Positions 7,446 to 34,791 are shown, numbered from the stretch's first letter. The stretch: DNA of 64,000 nt from Candidatus Thorarchaeota archaeon (GCA_004524565.1 SDNZ01000002.1:106-64105); one strand, 5' to 3'. Numbers and translations: made by a program. Notes: generated from the letters alone by a model not told the origin.

Positions 7446-7934
7446 ATGACTGAACTCAAATTTGTATTTGGAGACCCCGATGTCTGCTCTGGTTGTATGG
7501 TCTGTGTGAATGTTTGTAGTATGTATTACTCCAAAGTGATTGGTCCTACACGATCAAGAGTCCGAGTAGTACGAATTGAACCTGCTCTTGATTTTCCTTT
7601 ATTCTGCAGAAATTGTGAGGACGCCCCATGTATCGCAGCATGTCCCGAAGGTGCCCTCAGTAGAACTTCCAAGGGAATAGTGATAGTGAATAATAGAAAG
7701 TGCAACGGTACTGGCGCATGTGTTGCCGCTTGTCCGTACAATGCAATACACATACACCCTGATACTGGAAAAGCTATCAAATGTATTCAATGCGGGCAGT
7801 GTGTTGATAGATGTCCCGCAGATGCACTCTTCATAACAACTACTGCTGAATTAGCTGAGCGTGATAAAGAGGGGAGAATGATGGCACTCCATAATGAGCA
7901 CGAAGATGAGCTCTATGAGAAGGAGGCTATGTAA
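7446..7934 (+). CDS. 4Fe-4S ferredoxin-domain protein (AOR-associated electron-transfer subunit)
   Basis: 162 aa with several Cys clusters: CSGCMVCVNVC, CRNCEDAPCIAACP, CNGTGACVAACP, CIQCGQCVDRCP. The start lies 4 nt after the upstream stop, and its stop shares a base with the AOR start (TAATG). Confidence 0.85.
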   Translation: MTELKFVFGDPDVCSGCMVCVNVCSMYYSKVIGPTRSRVRVVRIEPALDFPLFCRNCEDAPCIAACPEGALSRTSKGIVIVNNRKCNGTGACVAACPYNAIHIHPDTGKAIKCIQCGQCVDRCPADALFITTTAELAERDKEGRMMALHNEHEDELYEKEAM

Positions 7935-9799
7935 TGATAAGTGGTCTGGGTGGTGAGATTCTCTGGATTGATATGTCGAGAGGTAAAATCGAGAAGAAAA
8001 CCATTGATGAAGAACTAGTGAATAAATATCTCCTTGGAGCTGGATACCTTTCAAAAGTCCTGTATGATATGATACCTGCAGGAACAGATCCACTCGGTGA
8101 GAAGAATATCCTAGGAATTGCTACCGGTACACTCACTGGGTCAATGTTTCCCCAAGCTTCTAGACATGTAGTGGCTGCACTTTCACCTCTCACTGGAATT
8201 TGGGGTGAAAGCCACGCCGCAGGATTCTTTGGAGCTGAACTGAAATTAGCTGGCTATGATGCTATTATGTTCACAGGTGCATCAAAAGAGCCGCTCTATC
8301 TGAACATAGAAGACTCCAAAGTAGAGCTTCTTGATGCCTCACATTTGTGGGGAAAGGATGTATTTGAAACCGATGATATCATACGCAAAGGTCACAATCG
8401 AAAGTTCAGAACACTATCAATTGGACAGGCTGGAGAGAATCTGGTTAAATTTGCAGCAGTTATGAATGACCGAGATCGTGCGTCTGCTAGATCTGGATTA
8501 GGAGCAGTGATGGGTTCAAAGAAAATAAAGGCAATCTCTGTTCATGGAACTGGCAAGTTGGAAGTGGCGGACCCGAAGAACTACCTCAGACAAATGGACG
8601 TTTTCTATGAGCGAATGATGGCTAATCCCTTCACTCCCGGTCGAGTGAAGTATGGAACAACAAGTCTTGTTGAACTTATGCAGCACATTGGAAGACTACC
8701 AAGCTACAATATGAAGCAGGGTGTTTTTGAAGGATACGACAAGATTAGTGGCGATGCTATTAACGCGAAATACTTTGTAAAAGCACGAGCAGACTACTCC
8801 TGTCTCCAAAGGTGTGGTAGATACACAGCTGTGCGAAGTGGCCCATACAAGTTCATTGGTGGTGCACCAGAATTTGAAACACAGTCATCGATGGGCTCTC
8901 GATGTGGAAATGATAATCTGGAATCCGTTCTCTTTGGTCATCATCTAGCAAACCAGTATGGTATGGACACAATCTCATTAGGTGGAACTATATCCTGGGC
9001 TATGGAAGCGTGGGATGAGGGTCTCTTGACAGCTGAGGATACAGGTGGTATAGACCTAAGCTGGGGAAATGCTGATACCATCATTAAACTAACAAAGATG
9101 ATTGCACTGCGTGAAGGATTCGGAGATATCCTAGCTGAAGGTAGTGCTGCTGCTGCTGAAAGAATCGGTCGTGGTACTGACAAATTCGTTATGGCTGTGA
9201 AAAAACAGGAGATCGCAGGACAAGAGCCCAGAGCTCAGAAATCTATGGGTCTTGCAGCTGTAACTGCAGCTCGCGGAGCTGACCATCTCTACGCATTCCC
9301 TGTTCTCGATGAGGCGGGATTTGATGAAGATATAAAGAAACGTTTTGGAGAAGAATATCTGCCTGAGATGGCTGACCGTCTTAGTCCCAAGTACAAAGGG
9401 ATAATGGTCAAAGAGTGTGAAGATTTCATGGTCATGGTGGAGAGTGTAGGTCTCTGCAAGTATGGAACTCAGATACCACCCGAGTTCTATTATGATGATA
9501 TTGCACTCGCTCTGAAGGTACACAATGGATTGAACCTTACAGGAGTTCAACTCCAAGAGATTGGGGAGCGTATCGTAAATCTGAATCGTTTGTTCAATGC
9601 TCGATTCGGTGTATCTCGAAAAGATGATTGTCTTCCCGACCGTTTAACAAAAGAGAAGGCACCTCTGGGTCCATCTGCAGGTGAAGTAGTAGAACTTGAC
9701 CAGATGCTCACAGAGTACTATGATGTGCGAGGTTGGGATCAAGAGACTGGATTACCTCTAAAAGAAACTCTCAAACGACTCGGTTTAGATGGCTTATAG
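7934..9799 (+). CDS. aor: Aldehyde:ferredoxin oxidoreductase family (tungstopterin AOR-type)
   Basis: 621 aa. Family-typical N-terminus ILWIDMSRGKIEKKTIDEE...YLLGAGYLSK, an ...EPRAQKSMGL... region and the FeS/pterin region MVMVESVGLCKYG. Confidence 0.9.
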   Translation: MISGLGGEILWIDMSRGKIEKKTIDEELVNKYLLGAGYLSKVLYDMIPAGTDPLGEKNILGIATGTLTGSMFPQASRHVVAALSPLTGIWGESHAAGFFGAELKLAGYDAIMFTGASKEPLYLNIEDSKVELLDASHLWGKDVFETDDIIRKGHNRKFRTLSIGQAGENLVKFAAVMNDRDRASARSGLGAVMGSKKIKAISVHGTGKLEVADPKNYLRQMDVFYERMMANPFTPGRVKYGTTSLVELMQHIGRLPSYNMKQGVFEGYDKISGDAINAKYFVKARADYSCLQRCGRYTAVRSGPYKFIGGAPEFETQSSMGSRCGNDNLESVLFGHHLANQYGMDTISLGGTISWAMEAWDEGLLTAEDTGGIDLSWGNADTIIKLTKMIALREGFGDILAEGSAAAAERIGRGTDKFVMAVKKQEIAGQEPRAQKSMGLAAVTAARGADHLYAFPVLDEAGFDEDIKKRFGEEYLPEMADRLSPKYKGIMVKECEDFMVMVESVGLCKYGTQIPPEFYYDDIALALKVHNGLNLTGVQLQEIGERIVNLNRLFNARFGVSRKDDCLPDRLTKEKAPLGPSAGEVVELDQMLTEYYDVRGWDQETGLPLKETLKRLGLDGL

Positions 9800-9811
9800 A
9801 GATTGGTTCCT

Positions 9812-10048
9812 CTATTCACATGATGCACACACGTTCGTTATGGTGTCCTTGATACCATCCACCTTTCGGAGTTCGTTAACAACAAATGAACTCAATGCCT
9901 CTGGAGTCTTGAACGCACACTTGATCAGAAGGTCATAGGCTCCGTAGATAAGATATGCCTCTTCAACCTCATCAAGAGCTCGAATTACTTCCAATATGTT
10001 ACGCGACTTTGTCGACTCTACCTTGGCCATGATGAATGCGACTATCAC
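9812..10048 (-). CDS. Stand-alone Lrp/AsnC ligand-binding (RAM) domain protein
   Basis: 78 aa. VAFIMAKVE...VIRALDEVEEAYLIYGAYDLLIKC...ALSSFVVNELRKVDGIKDTIT matches the AsnC-type effector domain. There is no HTH part. Confidence 0.7.
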   Translation of the reverse strand: MIVAFIMAKVESTKSRNILEVIRALDEVEEAYLIYGAYDLLIKCAFKTPEALSSFVVNELRKVDGIKDTITNVCASCE

Positions 10049-23214: not shown

Positions 23215-23964
23215 ATGAATCAATTCATCCTTGCTCTCTGTGGTTTACCCGCATCTGGAAAATCTACATTAGCCAATGCAATCCAGAAAGCTCTGAACTA
23301 TGAAGTTGAGATTGTCAGGACTGATGAATGGCGAGATATTGAGTACTATACTGATTGGGTACCAGAAAAGGAAAAGCCCGTTCGACAAAAGGCCCTGTCA
23401 AGAGTTAGCGAGCTTGTTGAAGAAGGGAAGAGTGTAATCCACGATGATACAAATTATTACACAAGTATGCGACACGATCTGTTCAAGATAGCACTTGAGA
23501 AACAATGTGGATTTGCGATAGTTCATGTTGCAACACCAGTTACTGTTGCACTTCAATGGAATCGGGAACGAGAAAACTCCAGGGTTCCTGATAGTGTTAT
23601 ACAAGATATTTTCGAACGGTTCGATAATCCTGGACATAGTTATTTGTGGGATACGGAAGATCTTGAGGTCTCTCTGGAGATTCAGAATATTGATGATGTT
23701 CTCCCTGATATCGTTGAGATTCTCAAAGAGATTGAACCTGCAAAAAAGCCTAAACCAAGACTAGTGACAAGTACAGAATTTACTCGATTGGATACTGCAA
23801 CAAGATTGGTAGTTTCAGAATTTCTACAAGAATATCCCGAATTCCGAGGAAACCGAGAAGTCTCAATCATACGTCGAAGTTTCTTACGGAAAGCTAGTGA
23901 ACGGAAAATACAACTTAAAGCTGTTCATAAACTCCTTTGGAGTGAACTGTCACGTTTACTGTGA
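23215..23964 (+). CDS. pstK: O-phosphoseryl-tRNA(Sec) kinase (PSTK)
   Basis: 249 aa. P-loop LCGLPASGKST, then DDTNYYTSMRHDL and FERFDNPGHSYLWD. From memory, these parallel the Methanocaldococcus PSTK motifs (DDTNYYNSMRRDL, FDEPGKKYKWD). The stop codon abuts the tRNA-Sec gene. Confidence 0.88.
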   Translation: MNQFILALCGLPASGKSTLANAIQKALNYEVEIVRTDEWRDIEYYTDWVPEKEKPVRQKALSRVSELVEEGKSVIHDDTNYYTSMRHDLFKIALEKQCGFAIVHVATPVTVALQWNRERENSRVPDSVIQDIFERFDNPGHSYLWDTEDLEVSLEIQNIDDVLPDIVEILKEIEPAKKPKPRLVTSTEFTRLDTATRLVVSEFLQEYPEFRGNREVSIIRRSFLRKASERKIQLKAVHKLLWSELSRLL

Positions 23965-24055
23965 TGGCGGCCTCCTAAGAGAATCGAACTCTCAACGCTT
24001 GCACGTTCACGGGTTTGAAGCCCGCGGAACCAGACCACCGGTCCTGTAGAAGGCC
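23965..24055 (-). tRNA. tRNA-Sec (anticodon UCA), archaeal/eukaryotic 9/4 fold, genomically encoded CCA
   Basis: Minus-strand sequence GGCCTTCTA-CA-GGACCGG-TGGT-CTGGTTC-CGCGGG-CTTCAAA-CCCGTG-AACGT-GCAA-GCGTT-G-AGAG-TTCGATT-CTCT-TAGGAGGCC-G-CCA. It has a 9-bp acceptor stem, a 7-bp D-stem with a 4-nt loop, a 6-bp anticodon stem, a loop with U33-UCA-A37, a long variable arm with a GCAA loop, and a 4-bp T-stem with a TTCGATT loop. Folded by hand. Confidence 0.9.
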
Positions 24056-24079: not shown

Positions 24080-24090
24080 CTTACTAAAAT
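24080..24090 (-). promoter_or_regulatory. Possible TATA-like element for tRNA-Sec
   Basis: The minus strand reads ATTTTAGTAAG about 25-35 nt upstream of the tRNA 5' end. The tRNA could alternatively be processed from the selB-spcS transcript. Confidence 0.25.
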
Positions 24091-24744
24091 CTAGAGGTAG
24101 CGGCCTATGACTGCATGCGTTCCCTTTTTCCACTCTATACTCTTTTTGGCTAATTCAGCAGCGATGTTTCCTGGTAGTGGTTGTTCACGAGGTAACGATT
24201 CAATATTTGATAACCAACCAGAAGTTGTAAGAGCTATTGTGTTAACACCTTCATCCCCCTCGGTTGCTTTGATTATCATCTCTCGCCCATGAGCAACTTG
24301 GTAGTACACTTCACTCAGTGGTGCTTTCTTCAAAATTTTATGGACAACCATATCCCAACATGTCTTTGCTACCAACGCCCTTCTAAGCTTGGATCTATCT
24401 TCCTCAGGAAGTGCTTCTAATTTACTAATGGATTCCTCTAGGTTTTCCATAATACCATCCAAGTAAACTTTGAGCGCAACCTCATCCTTACCCTGTGCGT
24501 GGAGTTCGACTGATGCTTCTTCCTCATTGACTTTAACCGATGCAAATGCCTTCTCGCCGGCAATTTGAAGAGAGAATTTCGCATCACCTTGAAAGCTTGT
24601 ACTCTCCGCTTCGCTGTACTGATCAAGAAGTACATTCGGCTTAGAAGCAATAGCATACCAAGCTACTCTGAAGACTGCAGCAGAATCCTCTGAGGCATAC
24701 TTTTGAATTTGAGAAATCTCAACCATATCGTCGTCTGCTTCCAC
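24091..24744 (-). CDS. Uncharacterised 217-aa protein embedded in the selenocysteine operon
   Basis: Starts 30 nt downstream of the spcS stop on the same strand and ends 35 nt before tRNA-Sec. Acidic N-terminus. No motif recognised, and no L7Ae-like or nucleotide-binding signature is visible. Confidence 0.6.
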   Translation of the reverse strand: MEADDDMVEISQIQKYASEDSAAVFRVAWYAIASKPNVLLDQYSEAESTSFQGDAKFSLQIAGEKAFASVKVNEEEASVELHAQGKDEVALKVYLDGIMENLEESISKLEALPEEDRSKLRRALVAKTCWDMVVHKILKKAPLSEVYYQVAHGREMIIKATEGDEGVNTIALTTSGWLSNIESLPREQPLPGNIAAELAKKSIEWKKGTHAVIGRYL

Positions 24745-24774
24745 GTGTCAGGCCCTCCCTCAAGGACAATATCA

Positions 24775-26094
24775 TTATCTACTAGCCTCCTTATAGAGTT
24801 TAGCCGTAGCTGTTTCAATGTCTTCTTTTCGTGCTCCAATAGCTGCATTCATCACGATATAGCTGTGAGGATAGTTTTCTGTTGATGATCCATAGTCCCC
24901 TTTCTTTACTGCTCTTGGTCCAGTCACTCGAGCATTATAGAGCCTTGCCCCTATTTCTTCTACATCCAAGCCATCCATAGTGATAGCAAATGCCACAGGA
25001 TTCCTTACTTCTAACAATCGTTGCCCAAGTTTTTCAGCAATAATCAGAAGACTTTCTTGTAACTGTGCTAGATTCTCCAATTGTTGTTTCTGAAGCTCTT
25101 TGTATCTCTCATAACCTATTGAAAGAAGAGCGGCAAGAGTTTGAATAACGGGAGCTGCGCTAGCACGTCCCGCATAGGTGTCTGAGACCCATGCGATTAA
25201 CTCTGATTTTGGAGAAACTACGATTGAACCTCCAACAGGAGTCAGGAAATTTTTGTCACTACTCTGTATGACTGCGTCAACTCTTCCAGCATCAATTGCT
25301 GACCGAATTTGCATCATGATCTCTTGAGATTGAACTCCATATGCATTGTTGATTATCAATGGAACATCATACTCTGAACAGAGACGAGCTATACTTTTTA
25401 CGGGGTCGGACTCTCGCGGTGGAAAGAATGTGGTTGTAGCGAGAACTGCACACGCTTCTGTATTGCTGATGCTCTTCTCAAATTCTCCAAGATTAACACG
25501 AACTGCATCACCTTCAATGACCGTGGGGATTTGCACTTCATCTAATCCTGCTAGAGCTATGCCTCGCTTGGGTGAGGTGTGATCTATTCTCGGATAGAGT
25601 ACCTTCTTTATGCCCACTTCTCTTCTGAGGGCACTCAATACCAATGCAATACTCATTCCTGTGGATACTGGTGTAACTATGCCTGCTTTCGTATTACTTA
25701 GTCCCAATTTTCTAATTGCATCTAGGGCTGTGTTATTTGCTACTTGTTGCATCAATGACGCACCAGCAGCCTTTGGTTGCGGAGCTGAAAGCTGACCACT
25801 TCTACCAATTCCATGGTTGAAATCAGCAGCTAAACTTGCTACATATGGGGATGCAACTCGTGCTTCACGTTCTCCCACTCTTGCGGCTTCTGGATCTTTG
25901 TCAGTATCCATCGACGAAAGAATCTGAACCATTAGTTCAAGTTGAGAATCTGTTAAACCTCTGTCTGGAAAGATTCGTCTATTTAGGACATCGCGAACTG
26001 GAGCGAGTAATGAGTCTATTGTTGTTCGACCTCTACGAGCCATACTTTCTGGAATCGTCTTGTCTAGAATCCTATCAATTTCATCATGGTCCAA
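24775..26094 (-). CDS. spcS: O-phosphoseryl-tRNA(Sec) selenium transferase (SepSecS)
   Basis: 439 aa. Motifs GEREARVASP...FNHGIGRSGQLSAPQPKAAGAS and the PLP-lysine region VIQSSDKNFLTPVGGSIV. Confidence 0.9.
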   Translation of the reverse strand: MDHDEIDRILDKTIPESMARRGRTTIDSLLAPVRDVLNRRIFPDRGLTDSQLELMVQILSSMDTDKDPEAARVGEREARVASPYVASLAADFNHGIGRSGQLSAPQPKAAGASLMQQVANNTALDAIRKLGLSNTKAGIVTPVSTGMSIALVLSALRREVGIKKVLYPRIDHTSPKRGIALAGLDEVQIPTVIEGDAVRVNLGEFEKSISNTEACAVLATTTFFPPRESDPVKSIARLCSEYDVPLIINNAYGVQSQEIMMQIRSAIDAGRVDAVIQSSDKNFLTPVGGSIVVSPKSELIAWVSDTYAGRASAAPVIQTLAALLSIGYERYKELQKQQLENLAQLQESLLIIAEKLGQRLLEVRNPVAFAITMDGLDVEEIGARLYNARVTGPRAVKKGDYGSSTENYPHSYIVMNAAIGARKEDIETATAKLYKEASR

Positions 26095-27569: not shown

Positions 27570-27980
27570 ATGGTATCTAGATCTCTTGAGAAGATGATGC
27601 TCATTGCAGTAGGTCTCTCAACTGCAGTAATTATTGGAGTTCCTGTCTTACTTTATGCAATTGATACTATGTCGTATTCTACTCATCTTCAGAGTGCTCA
27701 GGTAGCAGCTGAAGATATCTTCACTGCGACTGAACGACTTGATACAGGGGAGGTTGAAAATCTCACCATTCGAGTTCACATACCAACAGGTATGTCGATG
27801 ATTGCTGATGTATCTACGTTAACAATATCAGTACTAATCAATGGTCAAACCACGAGTTGGTCTGATTCATACACTCACCAGATTGTGATCAATCCTCCAA
27901 CCGAAGCTGGTAATTATGATATAGAATTTACAATGGTTTCGAATGTAATTCATATCACATATACATTCATCTCATTCTAA
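27570..27980 (+). CDS. Hypothetical N-terminally membrane-anchored protein
   Basis: 136 aa. One N-terminal hydrophobic helix (MMLIAVGLSTAVIIGVPVLLYAI), then a beta-rich segment. It does not show a convincing class III (pilin) cleavage motif. Confidence 0.45.
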   Translation: MVSRSLEKMMLIAVGLSTAVIIGVPVLLYAIDTMSYSTHLQSAQVAAEDIFTATERLDTGEVENLTIRVHIPTGMSMIADVSTLTISVLINGQTTSWSDSYTHQIVINPPTEAGNYDIEFTMVSNVIHITYTFISF

Positions 27981-28070: not shown

Positions 28071-29144
28071 GTGAGGAATAAGCTCATGACTGAAGACGCC
28101 GAAAGGCTAGACGACATTGGTGAGGAAGAAGAAATTTCTGAGCCAGAGATAGAGATTGAAGAACCTGTCAAGAAGAAAGAAATGAAAGAAGCGAAAGAAA
28201 AGAAACCCAGAACAAATCCTCTTGGTATCCTTTTCAATCTTAGAATGCTTCGAAGATTTATTCAGATAGGATTCTTCATTGCCATCAATGCGTACATCTT
28301 TGTAGCATGGTTTCATATGCCTAACGTTACTGGATTCTTTCTTTCTTTTCGGAATATTATACCCTCGATCCCTATACTATCTCCACTTGAGGCACCATTT
28401 GCAGTGATTGCTGGTTCATTTGACACAATTCAACAGACATTCACTACAGGTCTATTCCCGTTCTTCACATTAGGTGCGATGATTATTATTCTCATCTTCG
28501 TTGGTCGCGCTCCTTGCGGTTGGATTTGCCCACTGGGCACCATCCAAGACTTTGTTACTCTACCCAAGAGAAACAAGATTCGTCCAGCTCCCAATACTGA
28601 AAGTGAACTCAGAAAGGTCAAAATATACATCTTCGTTATTGTCACCGGTCTAGCGGTTTGGTTGGGATTTGCACGAGCTACAGGAACTGGAGGACCACTT
28701 GAAGCCGCACTTGGTGCATTTGCAAATGATGCATTTGCTCCATTGAATCCTGCTAATATCTTGTTTAATATTATACCAAATTTGAATTGGCCCGAGGGTA
28801 TCAGTACACTATGGTATGTCTATTCATGGGGTTTTGCATGGCTCCAAATTGCTTTCGTTTCCATTATCTTCATTGTTTCCTTCTGGGTACCAAGGTGGTT
28901 CTGTAGATGGCTTTGTCCTGCAGGATGGCTCTATAGTATCTTTTCAAGAGAAGCATTGATTGGTATCGGAAGAAACCCTGCACGATGTACTCCTGATACG
29001 TGTAATGTCTGTGAAGTGGTCTGTCCAATGAATATCAGAATCAGGAAGTTTCCATATCAGCATATGCACAGTCCTGATTGTATAATGTGTCTGGAATGTA
29101 AAAGTCACTGCCCAAATAATGCCATAGTAATACGATTCTCATAG
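28071..29144 (+). CDS. NapH/MauN/NosR-type membrane polyferredoxin
   Basis: 357 aa. CGWICPLGT and CRWLCPAGW (CxxCP motifs at TM ends) plus C-terminal CNVCEVVCP and CIMCLECKSHCP. Acidic/Lys-rich N-terminal tail. GTG start at 28071 or ATG at 28086. Confidence 0.75.
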   Translation: MRNKLMTEDAERLDDIGEEEEISEPEIEIEEPVKKKEMKEAKEKKPRTNPLGILFNLRMLRRFIQIGFFIAINAYIFVAWFHMPNVTGFFLSFRNIIPSIPILSPLEAPFAVIAGSFDTIQQTFTTGLFPFFTLGAMIIILIFVGRAPCGWICPLGTIQDFVTLPKRNKIRPAPNTESELRKVKIYIFVIVTGLAVWLGFARATGTGGPLEAALGAFANDAFAPLNPANILFNIIPNLNWPEGISTLWYVYSWGFAWLQIAFVSIIFIVSFWVPRWFCRWLCPAGWLYSIFSREALIGIGRNPARCTPDTCNVCEVVCPMNIRIRKFPYQHMHSPDCIMCLECKSHCPNNAIVIRFS

Positions 29145-29513
29145 GCTGATAGAATCAGTTTTTTTGAGGACCTTATTAAATTCATCATTTAGTTTGGAAA
29201 AGATTTCAACAAGGCGGAGTCCTTCTTCAGTGACTCGTGCACCACCTCCCCCAACTGTACCCCCCTTGTAGGTTTCTACAAGACGCACTCCTAGTTTCTT
29301 TTCTATCTTCTTAATGACTCCCCATGCATAACGATATGACATTCCCAGTATCTGTGCCCCTTTGGTAATTGTTCCTTGTTCATGAACTGCTTTCAAAATT
29401 GCACATGCACCTGGGCCAAAAATATACTCTCCATTTCTTTCGAACCATAGTTTATAATTGGATTTCAAGTCCTGGGTTTTGCCATCCTTTTCTGACAATT
29501 GGACACTCTCCAA
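29139..29513 (-). CDS. ModE-N-terminal-like winged-helix regulator (molybdate/tungstate-regulator-type HTH)
   Basis: 124 aa. GACAILKAVHEQGTITKGAQILGMSYRYAWGVIKKIEKKLGVRLVETYKGGTVGGGGARVTEEG matches the ModE/LysR-type HTH layout. There is no Mop domain. Confidence 0.7.
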   Translation of the reverse strand: MESVQLSEKDGKTQDLKSNYKLWFERNGEYIFGPGACAILKAVHEQGTITKGAQILGMSYRYAWGVIKKIEKKLGVRLVETYKGGTVGGGGARVTEEGLRLVEIFSKLNDEFNKVLKKTDSISL

Positions 29514-29552
29514 TTTGGTAATAATTCGAAATGCGTGAGTTGAAACTCTAAC

Positions 29553-29810
29553 CTAGTGCCCCCACCGAAGTCTTTCACCTTTTGTGTCTTTCTTGAAGGC
29601 TTTCTTTACAATCTTCCAGTGATCCGCACACAGGTAGGTCTTCCTATCCCGAGCATCCTTTACTTTGAGACCCGAGGAAGTAACACTTGGCATGATTCTC
29701 ACTGTGGCAAAAGATCTCTTCGATGATTTTCTGCACCCCAAAATACTGCATTCTTTCGTAGACGTAGACGACACTTGTGACACTTCGAATGTGTATCTGT
29801 GCTTAGCCAT
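29553..29810 (-). CDS. Small basic protein with a C2CH zinc-finger-like spacing
   Basis: 85 aa. C22-x4-C27 ... C71-x2-H74 (CSILGC ... LCADHW). Lys/Arg-rich. Confidence 0.45.
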   Translation of the reverse strand: MAKHRYTFEVSQVSSTSTKECSILGCRKSSKRSFATVRIMPSVTSSGLKVKDARDRKTYLCADHWKIVKKAFKKDTKGERLRWGH

Positions 29811-29831
29811 TATAATGTTAGCGCCTACGGT

Positions 29832-30824
29832 CTAATCATGACCTGTACGAGGTGTAAGGACCGCACCTTTAGTGAAATCAAACATAATCCTCTTCTCTCC
29901 ACCCATTGAGAGTTTTACTACACGTGTATCATCTACACTTCCAATTCTGCATGCTGACAAATCATGTTCCTCTGCAATCTGTTTCAGTTTTAGAAAATTT
30001 TCCTCTCTAGTTGCAACTAAGAATCCAAGAGAGATATACATGCGAAGCCAATCTTCCAGTTTAATTTGTTGAGGTCTCGCTCTATCAATCATATCCAGGT
30101 CGATAGTACCACCTTTTCCAGAATACTCCAGCATCATTGCTGCAGTACCAGCAATACCTGCAACTGACACATCTTTTGATGCAGTAACAAGATTTCCCTC
30201 AGCAATATCGTTCATCACCGAAAGGCGTTTCACAACATTTTCTGAGGGTCTATCTGTTACTGAATCCCATCCCAGCTGATAATGTTCTCCTCTCTGACCA
30301 GTTCGATCAAACAGTACAACAAGAATATTGTCATCTTCTGCACCCCCTGCAGTAAGGATACAGCTTTTTTGAACTGTGCCTGTAGCAGATCCTACAACAT
30401 AAGTGGATGTTGAGTTTGGATTAGTATGCCCTCTAACTATGGGTATCTTGAAGGTATGCGAACCTCGGATCAGACCATCCAACATAGCCTCACCAATCTC
30501 CGGGTTTGAATAGGATAATGCTACAGCAAATGAAGTTGGCGTTCCACCTGCCGCATAGATATCCATGATATTTGCTAGTACTGCATTGAATCCAGCGGCA
30601 CTAGGATGTTGCAAGCATAAATCTTCAACAATTGCATCGGTAGTGAGAAGAACTAACTCGTCAGAGTCGGTCCCTATAGCAGCTGAATCTTCTCCGAGAC
30701 TGTGGGGTGTATCTCCCCTAAATGAACTCATTCGAAGCTTGTCTATAATTGATGGTAGAACGAATTTACGAGATATGCCATCAAAGCTGACCAGCATTTC
30801 AAGAATATCGTCAAGGCGAGTCAA
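29832..30824 (-). CDS. AIR-synthase-related protein (PurM/ThiL/SelD/HypE superfamily), specificity unknown
   Basis: 330 aa. SLGEDSAAIG...LLTTDAIVED...GFNAVLANIMDIYAAGGTP ... IPIVRGHTNP ... KDVSVAGIAGTAAMMLEYS is the superfamily layout. TTG start with GGTGA 5 nt upstream. It lacks the SelD N-terminal G-(C/U)-x-x-K loop. Confidence 0.75.
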   Translation of the reverse strand: MTRLDDILEMLVSFDGISRKFVLPSIIDKLRMSSFRGDTPHSLGEDSAAIGTDSDELVLLTTDAIVEDLCLQHPSAAGFNAVLANIMDIYAAGGTPTSFAVALSYSNPEIGEAMLDGLIRGSHTFKIPIVRGHTNPNSTSTYVVGSATGTVQKSCILTAGGAEDDNILVVLFDRTGQRGEHYQLGWDSVTDRPSENVVKRLSVMNDIAEGNLVTASKDVSVAGIAGTAAMMLEYSGKGGTIDLDMIDRARPQQIKLEDWLRMYISLGFLVATREENFLKLKQIAEEHDLSACRIGSVDDTRVVKLSMGGEKRIMFDFTKGAVLTPRTGHD

Positions 30825-30855
30825 AGGGTATCACCCATTTAATGACCACCTGATT

Positions 30856-30984
30856 CTATGGTGGTCCACTCAGAAATCCAATCGCGAATGCAGCCTGGCC
30901 TAACAGGATGCCAATACCAAGTAACGATAATCCAATCATGAAATAGATGAGCGCTCTCATCTCAGGACGAATTTCTTCTAACAC
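30856..30984 (-). CDS. Possible 42-aa hydrophobic mini-protein
   Basis: Not in the ORF track (<60 aa). GTG start with GGTGA about 7 nt upstream. Hand-translated as (M)LEEIRPEMRALIYFMIGLSLLGIGILLGQAAFAIGFLSGPP. Lies 31 nt upstream of the PurM-like gene on the same strand. Confidence 0.25.
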   Translation of the reverse strand: MLEEIRPEMRALIYFMIGLSLLGIGILLGQAAFAIGFLSGPP

Positions 30985-31068
30985 TACAATTCACCTTCGC
31001 GTGACTGCGATTGCCTTCGTGCTGCTTATAGACATTTTGGGCTGTACATGAGAAGCAAGTGTTCTCAA

Positions 31069-31371
31069 TTATTCACGTCGCCCAAGCTTCTTAGCAATAT
31101 CCTTGGGTATTGCATCAGGATAGTCTATATCACGTGGTAGAGGAGCTGCTGTTTCTATCTTCTTGGTGACTGGTTTACATCTGCCATCATCGCTCATTCT
31201 TCGATCCAAACATTTTCCGAATTTACACCATGGACCATCACATTCTTCATCAATCCACGTACACCAGATTTCCTTTTTACCTGCTCTCTGTCTGATTTTC
31301 ATCGCAGGAGGTTGCTTATCACATTTGAAACTCTTACAAAGTGGTGTGCATTCCACATAACCCGTTGCCAT
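31069..31371 (-). CDS. Cys-rich small protein of unknown function
   Basis: 100 aa with 8 Cys (CTPLCKSFKC ... WCTWIDEECDGPWCKFGKC ... GRCKP) and a basic C-terminus. Confidence 0.5.
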   Translation of the reverse strand: MATGYVECTPLCKSFKCDKQPPAMKIRQRAGKKEIWCTWIDEECDGPWCKFGKCLDRRMSDDGRCKPVTKKIETAAPLPRDIDYPDAIPKDIAKKLGRRE

Positions 31372-31406
31372 TGCATCGCACTCCTAGATCATGCTTATTG
31401 TTTGTG

Positions 31407-32207
31407 TTATCTCTTATCAGCTAGCCTTAGTAGTTCATCCAGTCTTTCCTGACCGCCTTCTACAACAGTGATACATCTCTGAAGTCTTGCTTTAGAAACT
31501 TCATACTTTTCTCTGGAGACATCACCAATTTTGAACTTAGCATCTAATCGGCTCATCTCTTTGTCTAGTATCTTCAAGGTTTTTTTGATTCCCTTTGACC
31601 AAATCTTCCCTGTCTTGATTGCATCTTTAAGGTTAGATCGAAGGTCTTTGATAGTTTGAAGAATCTCGACCTTTTGTTCCTTATAGATCTCTTTGTCAAC
31701 AGTTCCTGCAATCTCCTCCAATTTGGACAATCGCGCTTCATGTTTATCAAGGGAGTCAAGAATTTGCTCAATGACAAGTTTTTCCTTTACAGAAGTCAGT
31801 TCTCGTCTTCTGTTCTTCATCTGTTCAAACTCAGTGCGTAATGCTTCCGCCCGTGTTGTAAGAACAGCCTTGTCCGCCTTTTGTAACTGCAAAGCTTGTC
31901 TTGTTGCTTTTATCTTCTCAATCATCCTATCCAATTCATTATCAAGCACATTGAGTTCTGCATGAGCCAGCAGAATCGCGCCTGCATCATAGTGCATATT
32001 CTCAATAGTGACTTCAAAATGTGGTAGAGATGAAGGCTCAATTTTCTGAATTTCCTCAGAGATACCCAATTCTGGTTCAAGCACTAAATCATGCTCTGGT
32101 TGAATCTCTTTCTCATTCTGTATGAGTGGTTCTCCACAGAGTTTACAGAATTTACCTTCTGGAACTTCAAGACCGCACGATGGACATGCAACAAGTGGTT
32201 CCGGCAT
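31407..32207 (-). CDS. Zinc-ribbon plus long coiled-coil protein
   Basis: 266 aa. N-terminal CPSCGLEVPEGKFCKLCGEPL, then about 170 aa of heptad-like charged sequence. Confidence 0.6.
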   Translation of the reverse strand: MPEPLVACPSCGLEVPEGKFCKLCGEPLIQNEKEIQPEHDLVLEPELGISEEIQKIEPSSLPHFEVTIENMHYDAGAILLAHAELNVLDNELDRMIEKIKATRQALQLQKADKAVLTTRAEALRTEFEQMKNRRRELTSVKEKLVIEQILDSLDKHEARLSKLEEIAGTVDKEIYKEQKVEILQTIKDLRSNLKDAIKTGKIWSKGIKKTLKILDKEMSRLDAKFKIGDVSREKYEVSKARLQRCITVVEGGQERLDELLRLADKR

Positions 32208-32269
32208 TATTTGCTCCTTCCACTACATAGATAGCTCCGACTAGTCGGATAATTTAGTTAATTCATAAT

Positions 32270-32587
32270 TCATGTTAACTTAGCTAATCGGCTTGCAACT
32301 TCATCGAGTTGGGCTTTCGTTGTAACAATAGTAATGACTCCATAGGTTGGTAGTACCTTCAACTCCTCAACAAGGAGTGCTATTGCTTTTACTGCATCAA
32401 TTTCTTTCTTATCCAATGAACCATCTGGAAAAGTAAGTGATGCTTCAACCCACTTCACTTTCGTGTCGTCGGCTGGGAATAGGCAATAGATGTAGTCATC
32501 GTTACTGCATATGAAAGATGGCGAGTTCTCCCATGCTAGGGCGAGCATCGCACCAAAGTCCTTTGCGTTCGCAGCTTTGTCAGCCAT
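32270..32587 (-). CDS. Hypothetical protein
   Basis: 105-aa ORF, same strand as its neighbours. No motif recognised. Confidence 0.45.
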   Translation of the reverse strand: MADKAANAKDFGAMLALAWENSPSFICSNDDYIYCLFPADDTKVKWVEASLTFPDGSLDKKEIDAVKAIALLVEELKVLPTYGVITIVTTKAQLDEVASRLAKLT

Positions 32588-32668
32588 TAGGATTCATCCT
32601 CGGGCTAGATGTTATGCAAATGAACACAGTTGCTAACTTAATTGTTTTGGCCATGGACTCCGAGTGAT

Positions 32669-33253
32669 TTATGGTCGATGCCATGCAAAGGAATAATGCG
32701 CTATCTCCCCATTGTCTTTTACTGTGGCTATAATGAACCGTTTTCGAACACTGGTTGCCAATCTTCCAGCTCTTACAATATCTAATGGAACTACGCCTAC
32801 CTTTTGAGGGATAACATGTACAAGGAATGGCGCGTGATCTAGACCAGGACCTTTTTCGTACACCGCAAAATCAGTACCAAATTTCAAACCTGGGCGAACA
32901 ATATAGCCAAGCTCTCGTAATTGTGAATAGACTAGAAATCTATCTTTGAAATCTTCAGAAGTTCCTAAACCAAGTTCAAGAATCTCATCAAGGGTTAGAA
33001 CATGATTATCCTTGGAATCCAAGACTTGTGTTCTACCTGTTTTCGTAAGATATGCACATTCCAGAAGAGATAGCTCGAGTGGTTTGTCGAAAACAGAGGA
33101 TTTTGGTTTTCTAATTCCTACCGGTTGCCCAAAATACCCCTTCTTGTAAAGTGGCATACCTTGTTCAGGATTCCAAACAATAGCTCGGTCACCCACCAAT
33201 CTAGCTATTGCAACGGTGGATGTTTCTTCTGTCAAATCATGACACCTTATCAC
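32669..33253 (-). CDS. endA: tRNA-splicing endonuclease
   Basis: 194 aa. C-terminal catalytic domain FLVYSQLRELGYIVRPGLKFGTDFAVYEKGPGLDHAPFLVHV. Confidence 0.85.
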   Translation of the reverse strand: MIRCHDLTEETSTVAIARLVGDRAIVWNPEQGMPLYKKGYFGQPVGIRKPKSSVFDKPLELSLLECAYLTKTGRTQVLDSKDNHVLTLDEILELGLGTSEDFKDRFLVYSQLRELGYIVRPGLKFGTDFAVYEKGPGLDHAPFLVHVIPQKVGVVPLDIVRAGRLATSVRKRFIIATVKDNGEIAHYSFAWHRP

Positions 33254-33912
33254 ATGTTTAGAGTAAGTGAAAGCGTCCTGATAGTGATTGCAGCATCCTC
33301 TCCAAAGTTAGCAATATCCTCCATCATATTGATGAAATCCCGGAATCGTAACAGTATGGCTACAGGAATATCTGCTGGATATAGTAAGGACACAATATCA
33401 CGTTGTAAGATATCGATTTTCTTTTCTAGCGCACAAATGGCATCAGCTCGTTTCATGGACTCTTCCATATTAATTGAGAGAAATCGTACTGCCTCTCGCT
33501 GCTGAGTTATCTCTTCAATCACCGACTCACTCAGCTCGTTGATTTTCTCCTTCAATACACCCTCCGGAGTCCATTTGTCAATGATTGCTGCTAAGTGATA
33601 CAGGCACCATTCTGCTCCGTCAGCAAATTTATCATTATAATGAACAAGTCGGAGAAGATCCTCTCGCTGCATCAGTGTCTGTGCTTTTGCTAGTTCATTT
33701 AATATGGTGCGTTTAAGGTCATCACCTTTCTCTTCAAGTGCAGTGACCTTCTCAAGATCCTCTTTTGTAATAGAGCCCTTTCCAGCTAACCAATCAACTA
33801 CCGCATTTGCAACCATCTTGCTTGCAGCTAGTGCTTGTCGAAAATGCTCTTCTAACATCTGAGTGATGTTACTCAATTCAGAGGTAAGGAATCTATCGTT
33901 ATCAAGAACCAT
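33250..33912 (-). CDS. DUF47 / PhoU-like helical protein
   Basis: 220 aa, all-helical repeats (..LEEKGDDLKRTILNEL..., ...LEKKIDILQRDIVSLL...). The stop overlaps the endA start by 4 nt. Confidence 0.6.
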   Translation of the reverse strand: MVLDNDRFLTSELSNITQMLEEHFRQALAASKMVANAVVDWLAGKGSITKEDLEKVTALEEKGDDLKRTILNELAKAQTLMQREDLLRLVHYNDKFADGAEWCLYHLAAIIDKWTPEGVLKEKINELSESVIEEITQQREAVRFLSINMEESMKRADAICALEKKIDILQRDIVSLLYPADIPVAILLRFRDFINMMEDIANFGEDAAITIRTLSLTLNM

Positions 33913-33993
33913 TTCTCACACCCATCTTAAGCTGCAGTGCTTTGGAGTATCTTTTTAATTCTTCTGGATATCACGCACAACGAGGATTTCTCT

Positions 33994-34791
33994 ATGGAAT
34001 TATGGCAGATTATCGTTGCACTCATTCAAGGTCTTGCTGAATGGTTACCTATCAGCAGCGAAGGTCTACTTGCGTTTTACATAAACAACTTTGTACCTGC
34101 ACAAAAAGATAACATCCTTACTCTGGTTGTTTGGCTTCATCTAGGCACTTCCTTAGCTGTCATTGTACGATATCCAAGAATTATCCTCGACCTAATTTCT
34201 TTGAAAGATAGAATTCTATTGAAACGTTTGATTATTGCCACAATTGGAACTGCTGCAACTGCAATCCCTCTCTACATCATCCTCAAGGACAGTATAGTGC
34301 TATTTCAGGGCATGCTGCTGAATATGCTTGTAGGTGGTTTACTCTTGGTAACTGCTCTGGTCTTGTATCTACCAACACGCGTATCTACTGTTGATAGCCA
34401 GGAAATCGAAACTAGGGACGTTACAGATAAAGAAGCACTAGTAACGGGTCTTGTTCAAGGTTCTGCAGTTCTCCCAGGACTTAGTCGTTCAGGAGTCACT
34501 GTATCTTCACTACTAATGCAAAAAGTCGATAAAGAAACCGCCTTCCGATTTAGTTTCTTGATGTCCGTACCTGCAGTGTTAGGAATTCTCGCTTTAGAAA
34601 TTGTCACGGGGGATGCAATTCTCCCAAATGTTGAACTCGTGGATATGATACTCATCGAAGCAATTGTATTCATTGTAGGTCTTGTATCAATGGAATTTCT
34701 ATTACGATTAGCTAGAAGGGTACGCTTCTGGAAATTATGTTTGGTCCTAGCTCTAATTGCAATATTGTTTGGAATTGCCACTTTGCCTTGA
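33994..34791 (+). CDS. uppP: Undecaprenyl-diphosphate phosphatase (UppP/BacA family)
   Basis: Motifs GLAEWLPISSEG and LPGLSRSGVTVSS. Multi-TM. The ORF track begins at 33937 (GTG). The ATG at 33994 (MELWQIIVALIQG) fits family N-termini better. Confidence 0.85.
   Translation: MELWQIIVALIQGLAEWLPISSEGLLAFYINNFVPAQKDNILTLVVWLHLGTSLAVIVRYPRIILDLISLKDRILLKRLIIATIGTAATAIPLYIILKDSIVLFQGMLLNMLVGGLLLVTALVLYLPTRVSTVDSQEIETRDVTDKEALVTGLVQGSAVLPGLSRSGVTVSSLLMQKVDKETAFRFSFLMSVPAVLGILALEIVTGDAILPNVELVDMILIEAIVFIVGLVSMEFLLRLARRVRFWKLCLVLALIAILFGIATLP

Follow-up and report, generated by a model that had tools for sequence, protein, structure and literature searches.

The Asgard archaeal gene between SepSecS and tRNA-Sec outlasts the loss of neighbouring selenocysteine genes and is probably not a dedicated selenocysteine factor

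In eukaryotes, the kink-turn-like selenocysteine insertion sequence (SECIS) is connected to EFSec by the adaptor SBP2, an L7Ae-type SECIS-binding protein, and how archaeal SelB recognises a SECIS is still an open question. The only publicly flagged Asgard candidate is the protein family described by the NCBIfam model NF045535.1 ("Sel_Asgard, putative selenocysteine system protein"), a name already carried in NCBI by a Thorarchaeota homologue (P0075); this name was given from gene neighbourhood alone, and above-cutoff members occur in clades reported to be without selenocysteine (Sec). The same inference by association was made in the Discussion of PMC11227280 (ISME J 2024), where an Asgard-exclusive hypothetical protein, for example MBD3157761.1, was described as often lying near secS, efSec and pstk; its reported behaviour matches that of the NF045535 family, to which it probably belongs. 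The family is therefore known as a Sec candidate twice over, and a literature search found no functional study of it. Here we describe one member, the open reading frame (ORF) ORF217, in a stretch of 64,000 nucleotides (nt) from a Candidatus Thorarchaeota archaeon (GCA_004524565.1, SDNZ01000002.1:106-64105), hereafter the window. Because relatives that have lost the Sec genes keep this ORF intact and under selection, ORF217 is probably not a dedicated Sec factor. What is new here is the double dissociation of the family from Sec, together with an apparent promoter embedded in the neighbouring SepSecS gene.

The genes around ORF217 in the window are as follows.

24091..24744, minus strand: ORF217, GTG start, 217 amino acids, member of NF045535
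24775..26094, minus strand: SepSecS (spcS), PF05889 at E 1.9e-118 and TIGR03531 at 470 bits
26084..27478, minus strand: archaeal SelB/EFSec (selB), TIGR00475 at 276.7 bits, with aSelB_III and eEFSec_4th
23965..24055, minus strand: tRNA-Sec, anticodon TCA, by ARAGORN and Rfam RF01852 (59.2 bits)
23215..23964, plus strand: PSTK-like kinase of KTI12 fold, TIGR03574 at 145 bits, under the cutoff of 290.5

Read along the minus strand the order is SelB, SepSecS, ORF217 and tRNA-Sec, with an overlap of 11 nt between SelB and SepSecS. The first-pass annotation of this DNA had placed the ORF between SepSecS and tRNA-Sec with gaps of 30 nt and 35 nt, and both values were exact when re-measured. The PSTK-like kinase is convergent on tRNA-Sec and is followed by a TFB gene; its stop codon touches the 3' end of the tRNA gene with zero spacer. 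ORF217 is a real gene, since it has 295 homologues at E<=1e-3, all 69 of the extracted Thorarchaeota-type copies are uninterrupted and pairwise ratios of non-synonymous to synonymous substitution (dN/dS) are 0.05-0.10. The identical protein is deposited in NCBI as TFG33229.1, from a Candidatus Thorarchaeota metagenome-assembled genome (MAG).

NF045535 is an equivalog model, for which membership was taken as a score at or above the curated 132 bits together with a full-length match. ORF217 scored 229.9 bits (E 2.4e-68), with residues 19-213 aligned to model positions 3-194 of 195, and on this comparison of sequence with profile it belongs to the family. The earlier remark that the ORF carries no family motif holds for Pfam, where the scan gave zero matches, and does not hold for NCBIfam. 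Sequence searches of the PDB with ORF217, both single-sequence and profile, returned no match. To gauge family size, a profile made from Thorarchaeota only was run against 1.84 billion (1.84e9) representative proteins and yielded 22 representatives, one of which (P0137, 562 amino acids) looks spurious. The named matches were all Asgard, from Thorarchaeota, Promethearchaeota, Hermodarchaeota, Hodarchaeota, Odinarchaeia and Jordarchaeia/Freyarchaeota. Full-length members (ORF21x for any member of the family, about 210-220 amino acids) were found in Thorarchaeia, in Jordarchaeia/Freyarchaeota, in a more divergent form in Jordarchaeales, in Odinarchaeia, including the closed 1.42 Mb genome of Odinarchaeum yellowstonii LCB_4, in a clade with Hodarchaeota-labelled sequences and in a Thorarchaeota-like lineage (P0130). 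Relatives from Thorarchaeota, Jordarchaeia, Odinarchaeia and the Hodarchaeota-like clade scored 85-189 bits against NF045535. As far as these profile searches reach, the family is small and restricted to Asgard archaea.

The evidence that carries our conclusion comes from a survey of 66 Thorarchaeota species loci (GTDB species), in which Sec loss was scored at loci rather than in whole genomes. Seven of the 66 (L010, L018, L021, L025, L027, L031 and L046) are without SelB, SepSecS, tRNA-Sec and PSTK, and all seven keep an intact ORF of 215-224 amino acids between ORF136, the gene that diverges from selB in the window, and TFB. In every loss the deletions fell to either side of the ORF, which was itself left in place. 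In a tree of three flanking genes, which includes the 6/7 Sec-minus loci carrying all three, these loci are scattered among Sec-plus relatives, giving at least five independent losses. Remnants of the cluster were present in L031 (7899-10386) as a SelB N-terminal fragment of 102 amino acids, a SepSecS C-terminal fragment of 117 amino acids and a PSTK fragment, and in L021 (9684-9962) part of the coding sequence for the SelB G-domain runs straight into the final roughly 85 nt of SepSecS; both loci are snapshots of the decay of the Sec cluster.

Two of the Sec-minus loci, L025 and L027, have one common deletion scar, so that their divergence is later than the loss of Sec. Comparison of their ORF copies gave 13 differences over 500 non-synonymous sites and 34 over 148 synonymous ones, a dN/dS of 0.096 (Fisher p 6e-14 against neutrality) that is in a similar range to the 0.047-0.091 measured for Sec-plus pairs. 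Of the 34 positions near-invariant among Sec-plus copies, the Sec-minus copies have kept 33-34. Neither measure gave any sign of relaxed selection on the ORF after Sec loss. These data showed that the ORF has a selected function independent of the neighbouring Sec genes.

The second dissociation lies between Asgard classes. Around the members from Odinarchaeia, LCB_4 included, and from the Hodarchaeota-like clade, no Sec gene or tRNA-Sec was found within 10 kb. Sec use was reported in PMC11227280 only for Lokiarchaeia/Helarchaeales, Thorarchaeia (77%) and Sifarchaeia/Borrarchaeales, with earlier reports cited for Jordarchaeia, and Odinarchaeia and the Hodarchaeota-like clade were reported to be without it; among the supplementary selenoprotein files of that paper that were examined there was no Odinarchaeia entry, and the paper holds no analysis of Sec-less carriers of its hypothetical protein. 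In the other direction, the Helarchaeota selB-spcS locus has no family member within 10 kb, and the profile search of the 1.84 billion proteins gave no match labelled Lokiarchaeia, Helarchaeota or Sifarchaeia. Phylogenetic co-occurrence, in which the ORF would be present with Sec and lost without it, was thus not found at the locus level. The idea in the first-pass annotation that orthologues would be tied to Sec-using genomes, and present in all Sec-using relatives, has largely failed on both counts, with Odinarchaeia, the Hodarchaeota-like clade and seven Thorarchaeota loci carrying the gene without Sec on one side and the Helarchaeota locus on the other. Since the proteins of Odinarchaeum LCB_4 (143 bits) and of a Hodarchaeota-like lineage (P0133, 139 bits) pass the NF045535 cutoff in clades reported to be without Sec, the family name "putative selenocysteine system protein" is probably too specific.

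A separate observation concerns the spread of Sec itself. The search for SepSecS homologues gave three proteins labelled Bathyarchaeia (P0249, P0278 and P0305), about 58-60% identical to the Jordarchaeia enzyme and one of them on a 2.73 Mb contig, and also a Njordarchaeum entry (P0289). Sec machinery may therefore occur outside the archaeal groups usually cited for it.

The link of the ORF to Sec is nevertheless real, though not exclusive. A full SepSecS gene lies directly upstream of the ORF in 56 of the 66 Thorarchaeota species loci (the ORF being within 1 kb of selB-spcS) and tRNA-Sec lies downstream in 52. The order SelB-SepSecS-ORF219 recurs in Jordarchaeaceae/Freyarchaeota, with an ORF219 only about 22% identical, and in Jordarchaeales selB and the gene for a member of 189 amino acids are divergently oriented, about 850 bp apart; both of these Jordarchaeia groups are Sec users. 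The Sec neighbourhood is therefore present in the window, in Thorarchaeota and in Jordarchaeia, and it is missing in Odinarchaeia, the Hodarchaeota-like clade and the Sec-minus Thorarchaeota loci. Such a neighbourhood favours a true Sec accessory factor, a SelB partner, SECIS adaptor or tRNA-Sec handling protein, that Sec-less lineages would keep for a second job, an explanation which we hold to be possible but rather unlikely. It agrees with the inference drawn by NCBIfam and PMC11227280 and would supply the missing archaeal SECIS partner. It also draws on a weak covariation of evolutionary rate between the ORF and both SelB and SepSecS (residual r 0.21-0.26, with controls at -0.07 to 0.13), although the true Sec genes gave 0.36-0.52 among themselves and the ORF gave none with PSTK (r 0.04); this comparison was exploratory, as the sequences are related and no valid p-value can be attached to it. 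Against such a factor stand the purifying selection and residue conservation that are unchanged after Sec loss, the members in Odinarchaeia and the Hodarchaeota-like clade without Sec, and the lack of a member at the Helarchaeota Sec locus and of any labelled Lokiarchaeia or Sifarchaeia member, though these lineages have the same eukaryote-like SECIS. A more specific form of the idea is that in Thorarchaeia and Jordarchaeia the ORF links EFSec (SelB) to the eukaryote-like SECIS or escorts tRNA-Sec, as a functional counterpart of SBP2 or SECp43, though of unrelated fold, and that an older second function persists elsewhere; we regard this as improbable. Of the earlier proposal that ORF217 is a Sec factor by association, the neighbourhood in Thorarchaeia and Jordarchaeia has held up, and the dependence on Sec that it implied has not.

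The genes beyond selB in the window bear on how much weight this neighbourhood can carry. They are as follows.

27570-27980, plus strand: ORF136, divergent from selB, 133-141 amino acids in Thorarchaeota
28071-29144, plus strand: NapH/MauN-like Fer4_5 protein
29139-29513, minus strand: ModE-like helix-turn-helix protein
29553-29810, minus strand: small C2CH zinc protein
29832-30824, minus strand: AIR-synthase-like protein
about 31141-31365, minus strand: Cys-rich ORF
31407-32207, minus strand: ORF of 266 amino acids
32285-32578, minus strand: ORF of roughly 100 amino acids
32669-33253, minus strand: EndA
33250-33912, minus strand: PhoU_div
33937-34791, plus strand: BacA

In the window the block thus runs from ORF217 through spcS, selB and ORF136 to the genes at 28071..34791, Fer4_5 through BacA. 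Roughly ten functionally unrelated genes stand in recognisable order across several Asgard classes (window 28071-34791; L067, L068, L079, L081 and L084). Odinarchaeia and the Hodarchaeota-like clade both have the family member with the small zinc protein, a zinc-ribbon coiled-coil protein, the roughly 100-amino-acid ORF, EndA, PhoU_div and BacA, to which the Hodarchaeota-like clade adds Fer4_5 and Odinarchaeia the Cys-rich ORF, and neither has the Sec genes. In Helarchaeota the block retains selB-spcS together with the Cys-rich ORF, Fer4 and the zinc-ribbon protein, with no family member, and in Jordarchaeales the family member and selB-spcS are accompanied by the AIR-synthase-like gene and the small zinc protein. 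All this is most simply explained by a single ancestral Asgard block from which different parts were later lost, and because such a block mixes unrelated functions, the adjacency of ORF217 to selB-spcS is weak evidence of a common function.

Several genes of the block were of interest in their own right. The small zinc protein (window 29553-29810, minus strand; L067:10670-10885, L068:10633-10863, L079:10695-10910) is basic, 71-85 amino acids long and conserved in Thorarchaeota, Odinarchaeia, the Hodarchaeota-like clade and Jordarchaeales; its CxxC...CxxH spacing resembles the THAP-type C2CH arrangement (weak Pfam THAP match, E 0.03), and in both Odinarchaeia and the Hodarchaeota-like clade its gene directly adjoins that of the family member. 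This protein and Fer4_5 were each considered as an obligatory partner of the ORF and dropped, as order and orientation vary between classes. A gene of the AIR-synthase/PurM superfamily lies a few kb from selB-spcS in Thorarchaeota (window 29832-30824, minus strand), in Jordarchaeales (L084:1462-2439) and in L086 (6690-7610); the window copy is nearest to 'methanogenesis marker 2' and sll0787, below the cutoffs of both, and its SelD match is weak. The possibility that it is a hidden Sec gene was also dropped, since it is kept in the Sec-minus Thorarchaeota loci too. ORF136 is conserved, has a hydrophobic N-terminus (MVSRSLEKMMLIA...) and is fast evolving (dN/dS up to 0.39), and no family match was found for it. 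On L086, a 717-kb JGI metagenome contig (Ga0334965_0000001), a single gene of 751 amino acids (7753-10008) directly upstream of SepSecS combines a PSTK-type kinase (KTI12/AAA_33) with the SelB domains GTP_EFTU, D2 and aSelB_III, and by its domain content looks like a PSTK-SelB fusion.

The protein itself was modelled with AlphaFold at full length (mean predicted local distance difference test, pLDDT, 81.4; predicted template-modelling score, pTM, 0.79), giving a beta-alpha-beta4 N-terminal domain at about residues 8-85 followed by long helices; residues 88-217 modelled alone formed a five-helix bundle (pLDDT 93.7). Invariant or nearly so across the family are F25, A55, D131, Y147, A151, R154, E155, L178, W205 and K206, with D131, Y147, A151, R154, E155, W205 and K206 being the family-invariant residues of the bundle, on its helices 2, 3 and 5. 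The first-pass annotation would have counted a strong structural match to an unrelated housekeeping family against a Sec role, and there was none, as Foldseek of the full model gave no PDB match at E<=1e-3 and no significant match was obtained for the C-terminal bundle. The likeness of the N-terminal domain to TBP-like and Mog1-like folds is weak (TM-score about 0.3). This domain has the TBP-like order of secondary structure (beta-alpha-beta4-alpha), and its top, weak Foldseek matches are to domains of that kind, such as those of Bet v 1/PYL proteins, domain 4 of phosphoglucomutase and the N-terminal domain of RnlA, which we take to belong to one SCOP fold class; with TM-scores of 0.25-0.30 and E of at least 0.009, the likeness is one of topology and not demonstrated homology.

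The best match of the C-terminal bundle was the four-helix C-terminal domain of Vps28 (2j9w; TM-score 0.55 by query and 0.70 by target, root-mean-square deviation 3.4 A, Foldseek probability 1.00). Were this match meaningful, the bundle would be a Vps28-C-terminal-domain-like module and ORF217 an ESCRT-related Asgard protein unrelated to Sec, and an EAP30-like gene does lie about 4 kb away in Hodarchaeota-like loci, on a weak Pfam match. We consider this very unlikely. The E-value of 0.053 is not significant, helical bundles match promiscuously (cytochrome b562 and designed bundles came next), Pfam gave no VPS28 match even at E<=10, and ORF217 has five helices, not four, with an N-terminal domain unlike that of Vps28.

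Its composition is equally hard to fit to the roles first proposed for it. The Thorarchaeota protein is acidic (pI 4.9, net charge -11), as are the Hodarchaeota-like proteins (pI about 4.9-5.5 over both groups); only the last 52 residues of the Thorarchaeota protein are basic (pI 9.4), a point in favour of an accessory factor in Sec insertion, but no L7Ae or other RNA-binding domain was found by the Pfam and NCBIfam scans, and ORF217 shares with SBP2 neither sequence or structural similarity nor a distribution that follows Sec use. The suggested role as SECIS/SelB adaptor, the one SBP2 has in eukaryotes, consequently fares poorly. Selenium delivery, the other role suggested, fares no better. 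A selenium or sulfur carrier passing selenide or selenophosphate to SepSecS might be expected to adjoin that gene, and the single cysteine of ORF217, C129, is invariant in Thorarchaeota. Outside Thorarchaeota, however, C129 is not conserved, and several members are entirely free of cysteine; rhodanese, NifS, SelD and thioredoxin-like signatures were not found in ORF217, and the ORF is kept where Sec is absent. As there is no conserved Cys or Sec residue across the family, a carrier function is largely refuted and has very little probability left. No nucleotide-binding motif was found in ORF217 either. Taken together, the features suggest a soluble two-domain protein without cofactor or catalytic signatures, which may act as a non-enzymatic binding or adaptor protein through its conserved helical face.

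The sequences bordering the ORF contain three motifs that bear on its transcription and translation.

24789..24802, minus strand: BRE/TATA-like motif TAAACTCTATAAGG, in the last SepSecS codons, 44 nt upstream of the ORF217 start
24753..24761, minus strand: Shine-Dalgarno-like site GAGGGAGGG, 8 nt upstream of the GTG
24081..24089, minus strand: AT-rich motif TTTTAGTAA, 26-34 nt upstream of the tRNA-Sec 5' end

With <=4 mismatches allowed, 66 of 69 loci carry the BRE/TATA-like consensus CAAACTCTATAAGG, for the most part 42-47 nt before the ORF start, compared with 6.7% of random windows. It is kept at all seven of the Sec-minus Thorarchaeota loci, 38-53 nt upstream of the ORF, where SepSecS is gone. 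At the Sec-plus loci the last SepSecS codons over the motif are unusually fixed (AAA 0.87, TAT 1.00 and AAG 0.96, against a median of 0.45), and L025 and L027 are almost identical over about 75 nt before the ORF start, a phylogenetic footprint beyond which their sequences have diverged. A Shine-Dalgarno-like GAGGGAGG or GGGAGG stands 7-9 nt before the start in most Thorarchaeota loci, and in many other Thorarchaeota loci the gap before tRNA-Sec has TATA-like motifs of the AAGCTTAAGTCC type at about the same distance, so that TTTTAGTAA may possibly be a weak candidate for the TATA box of tRNA-Sec. ORF217 seems to be served by a promoter of its own, lying within the final codons of spcS. Because of the conserved BRE/TATA-like motif, the Shine-Dalgarno-like site belonging to the ORF and the TATA-like motif in the tRNA-Sec gap, the selB-spcS-ORF217-tRNA-Sec cluster is probably several transcription units and not one. 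ORF217 had previously been assigned to the inside of a single unit; its strand and short gaps fit that description, while the motif and the Shine-Dalgarno-like site point to a separate promoter.

On balance, we lean towards ORF217 being a Sec-independent Asgard housekeeping protein whose position has been inherited. An old mixed Asgard block would have extended from EndA, PhoU_div and BacA, through the zinc-ribbon, Cys-rich and small zinc proteins and Fer4_5, to ORF21x and selB-spcS. Later, lineage-specific losses would have removed the Sec genes in Odinarchaeia, the Hodarchaeota-like clade and several Thorarchaeota, and ORF21x, at least locally, in Helarchaeota. In Thorarchaeia the ORF would have a BRE/TATA-like promoter of its own for transcription, in the end of spcS, and its own Shine-Dalgarno site for translation, with read-through from selB-spcS also possible. 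The protein would then serve as an adaptor, by way of its conserved helical face, in a housekeeping process common to Sec-using and Sec-lacking Asgard archaea; that this process is translation or tRNA metabolism is a guess prompted only by the long-standing neighbours of the gene.

Several points weigh against a Sec-independent role. Two Asgard classes keep the gene no more than 1 kb from selB-spcS, Jordarchaeia in two arrangements, and the adjacency to selB-spcS outlasts most of the block, which hints at functional coupling; the covariation of rates with SelB and SepSecS, weak as it is, points the same way. With loss surveyed at loci only, the Sec genes of the Sec-minus Thorarchaeota MAGs may have moved elsewhere in the genome. 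For Lokiarchaeia and Helarchaeota, absence means 'not detected' only, since a profile made from Thorarchaeota alone failed to recover the divergent Jordarchaeales member as well. Finally, the promoter of ORF217 is a putative one, deduced from the conservation of its sequence, and the adaptor role is a conjecture.

If true, a link of this family to Sec would bear on the origin of the eukaryotic Sec-insertion machinery. That expectation is lowered by a gene that survives repeated Sec loss, occurs in Sec-less classes, sits in an ancient mixed block and apparently has a promoter of its own. As a practical warning, members of this Asgard family are probably over-annotated by their curated name, "putative selenocysteine system protein".

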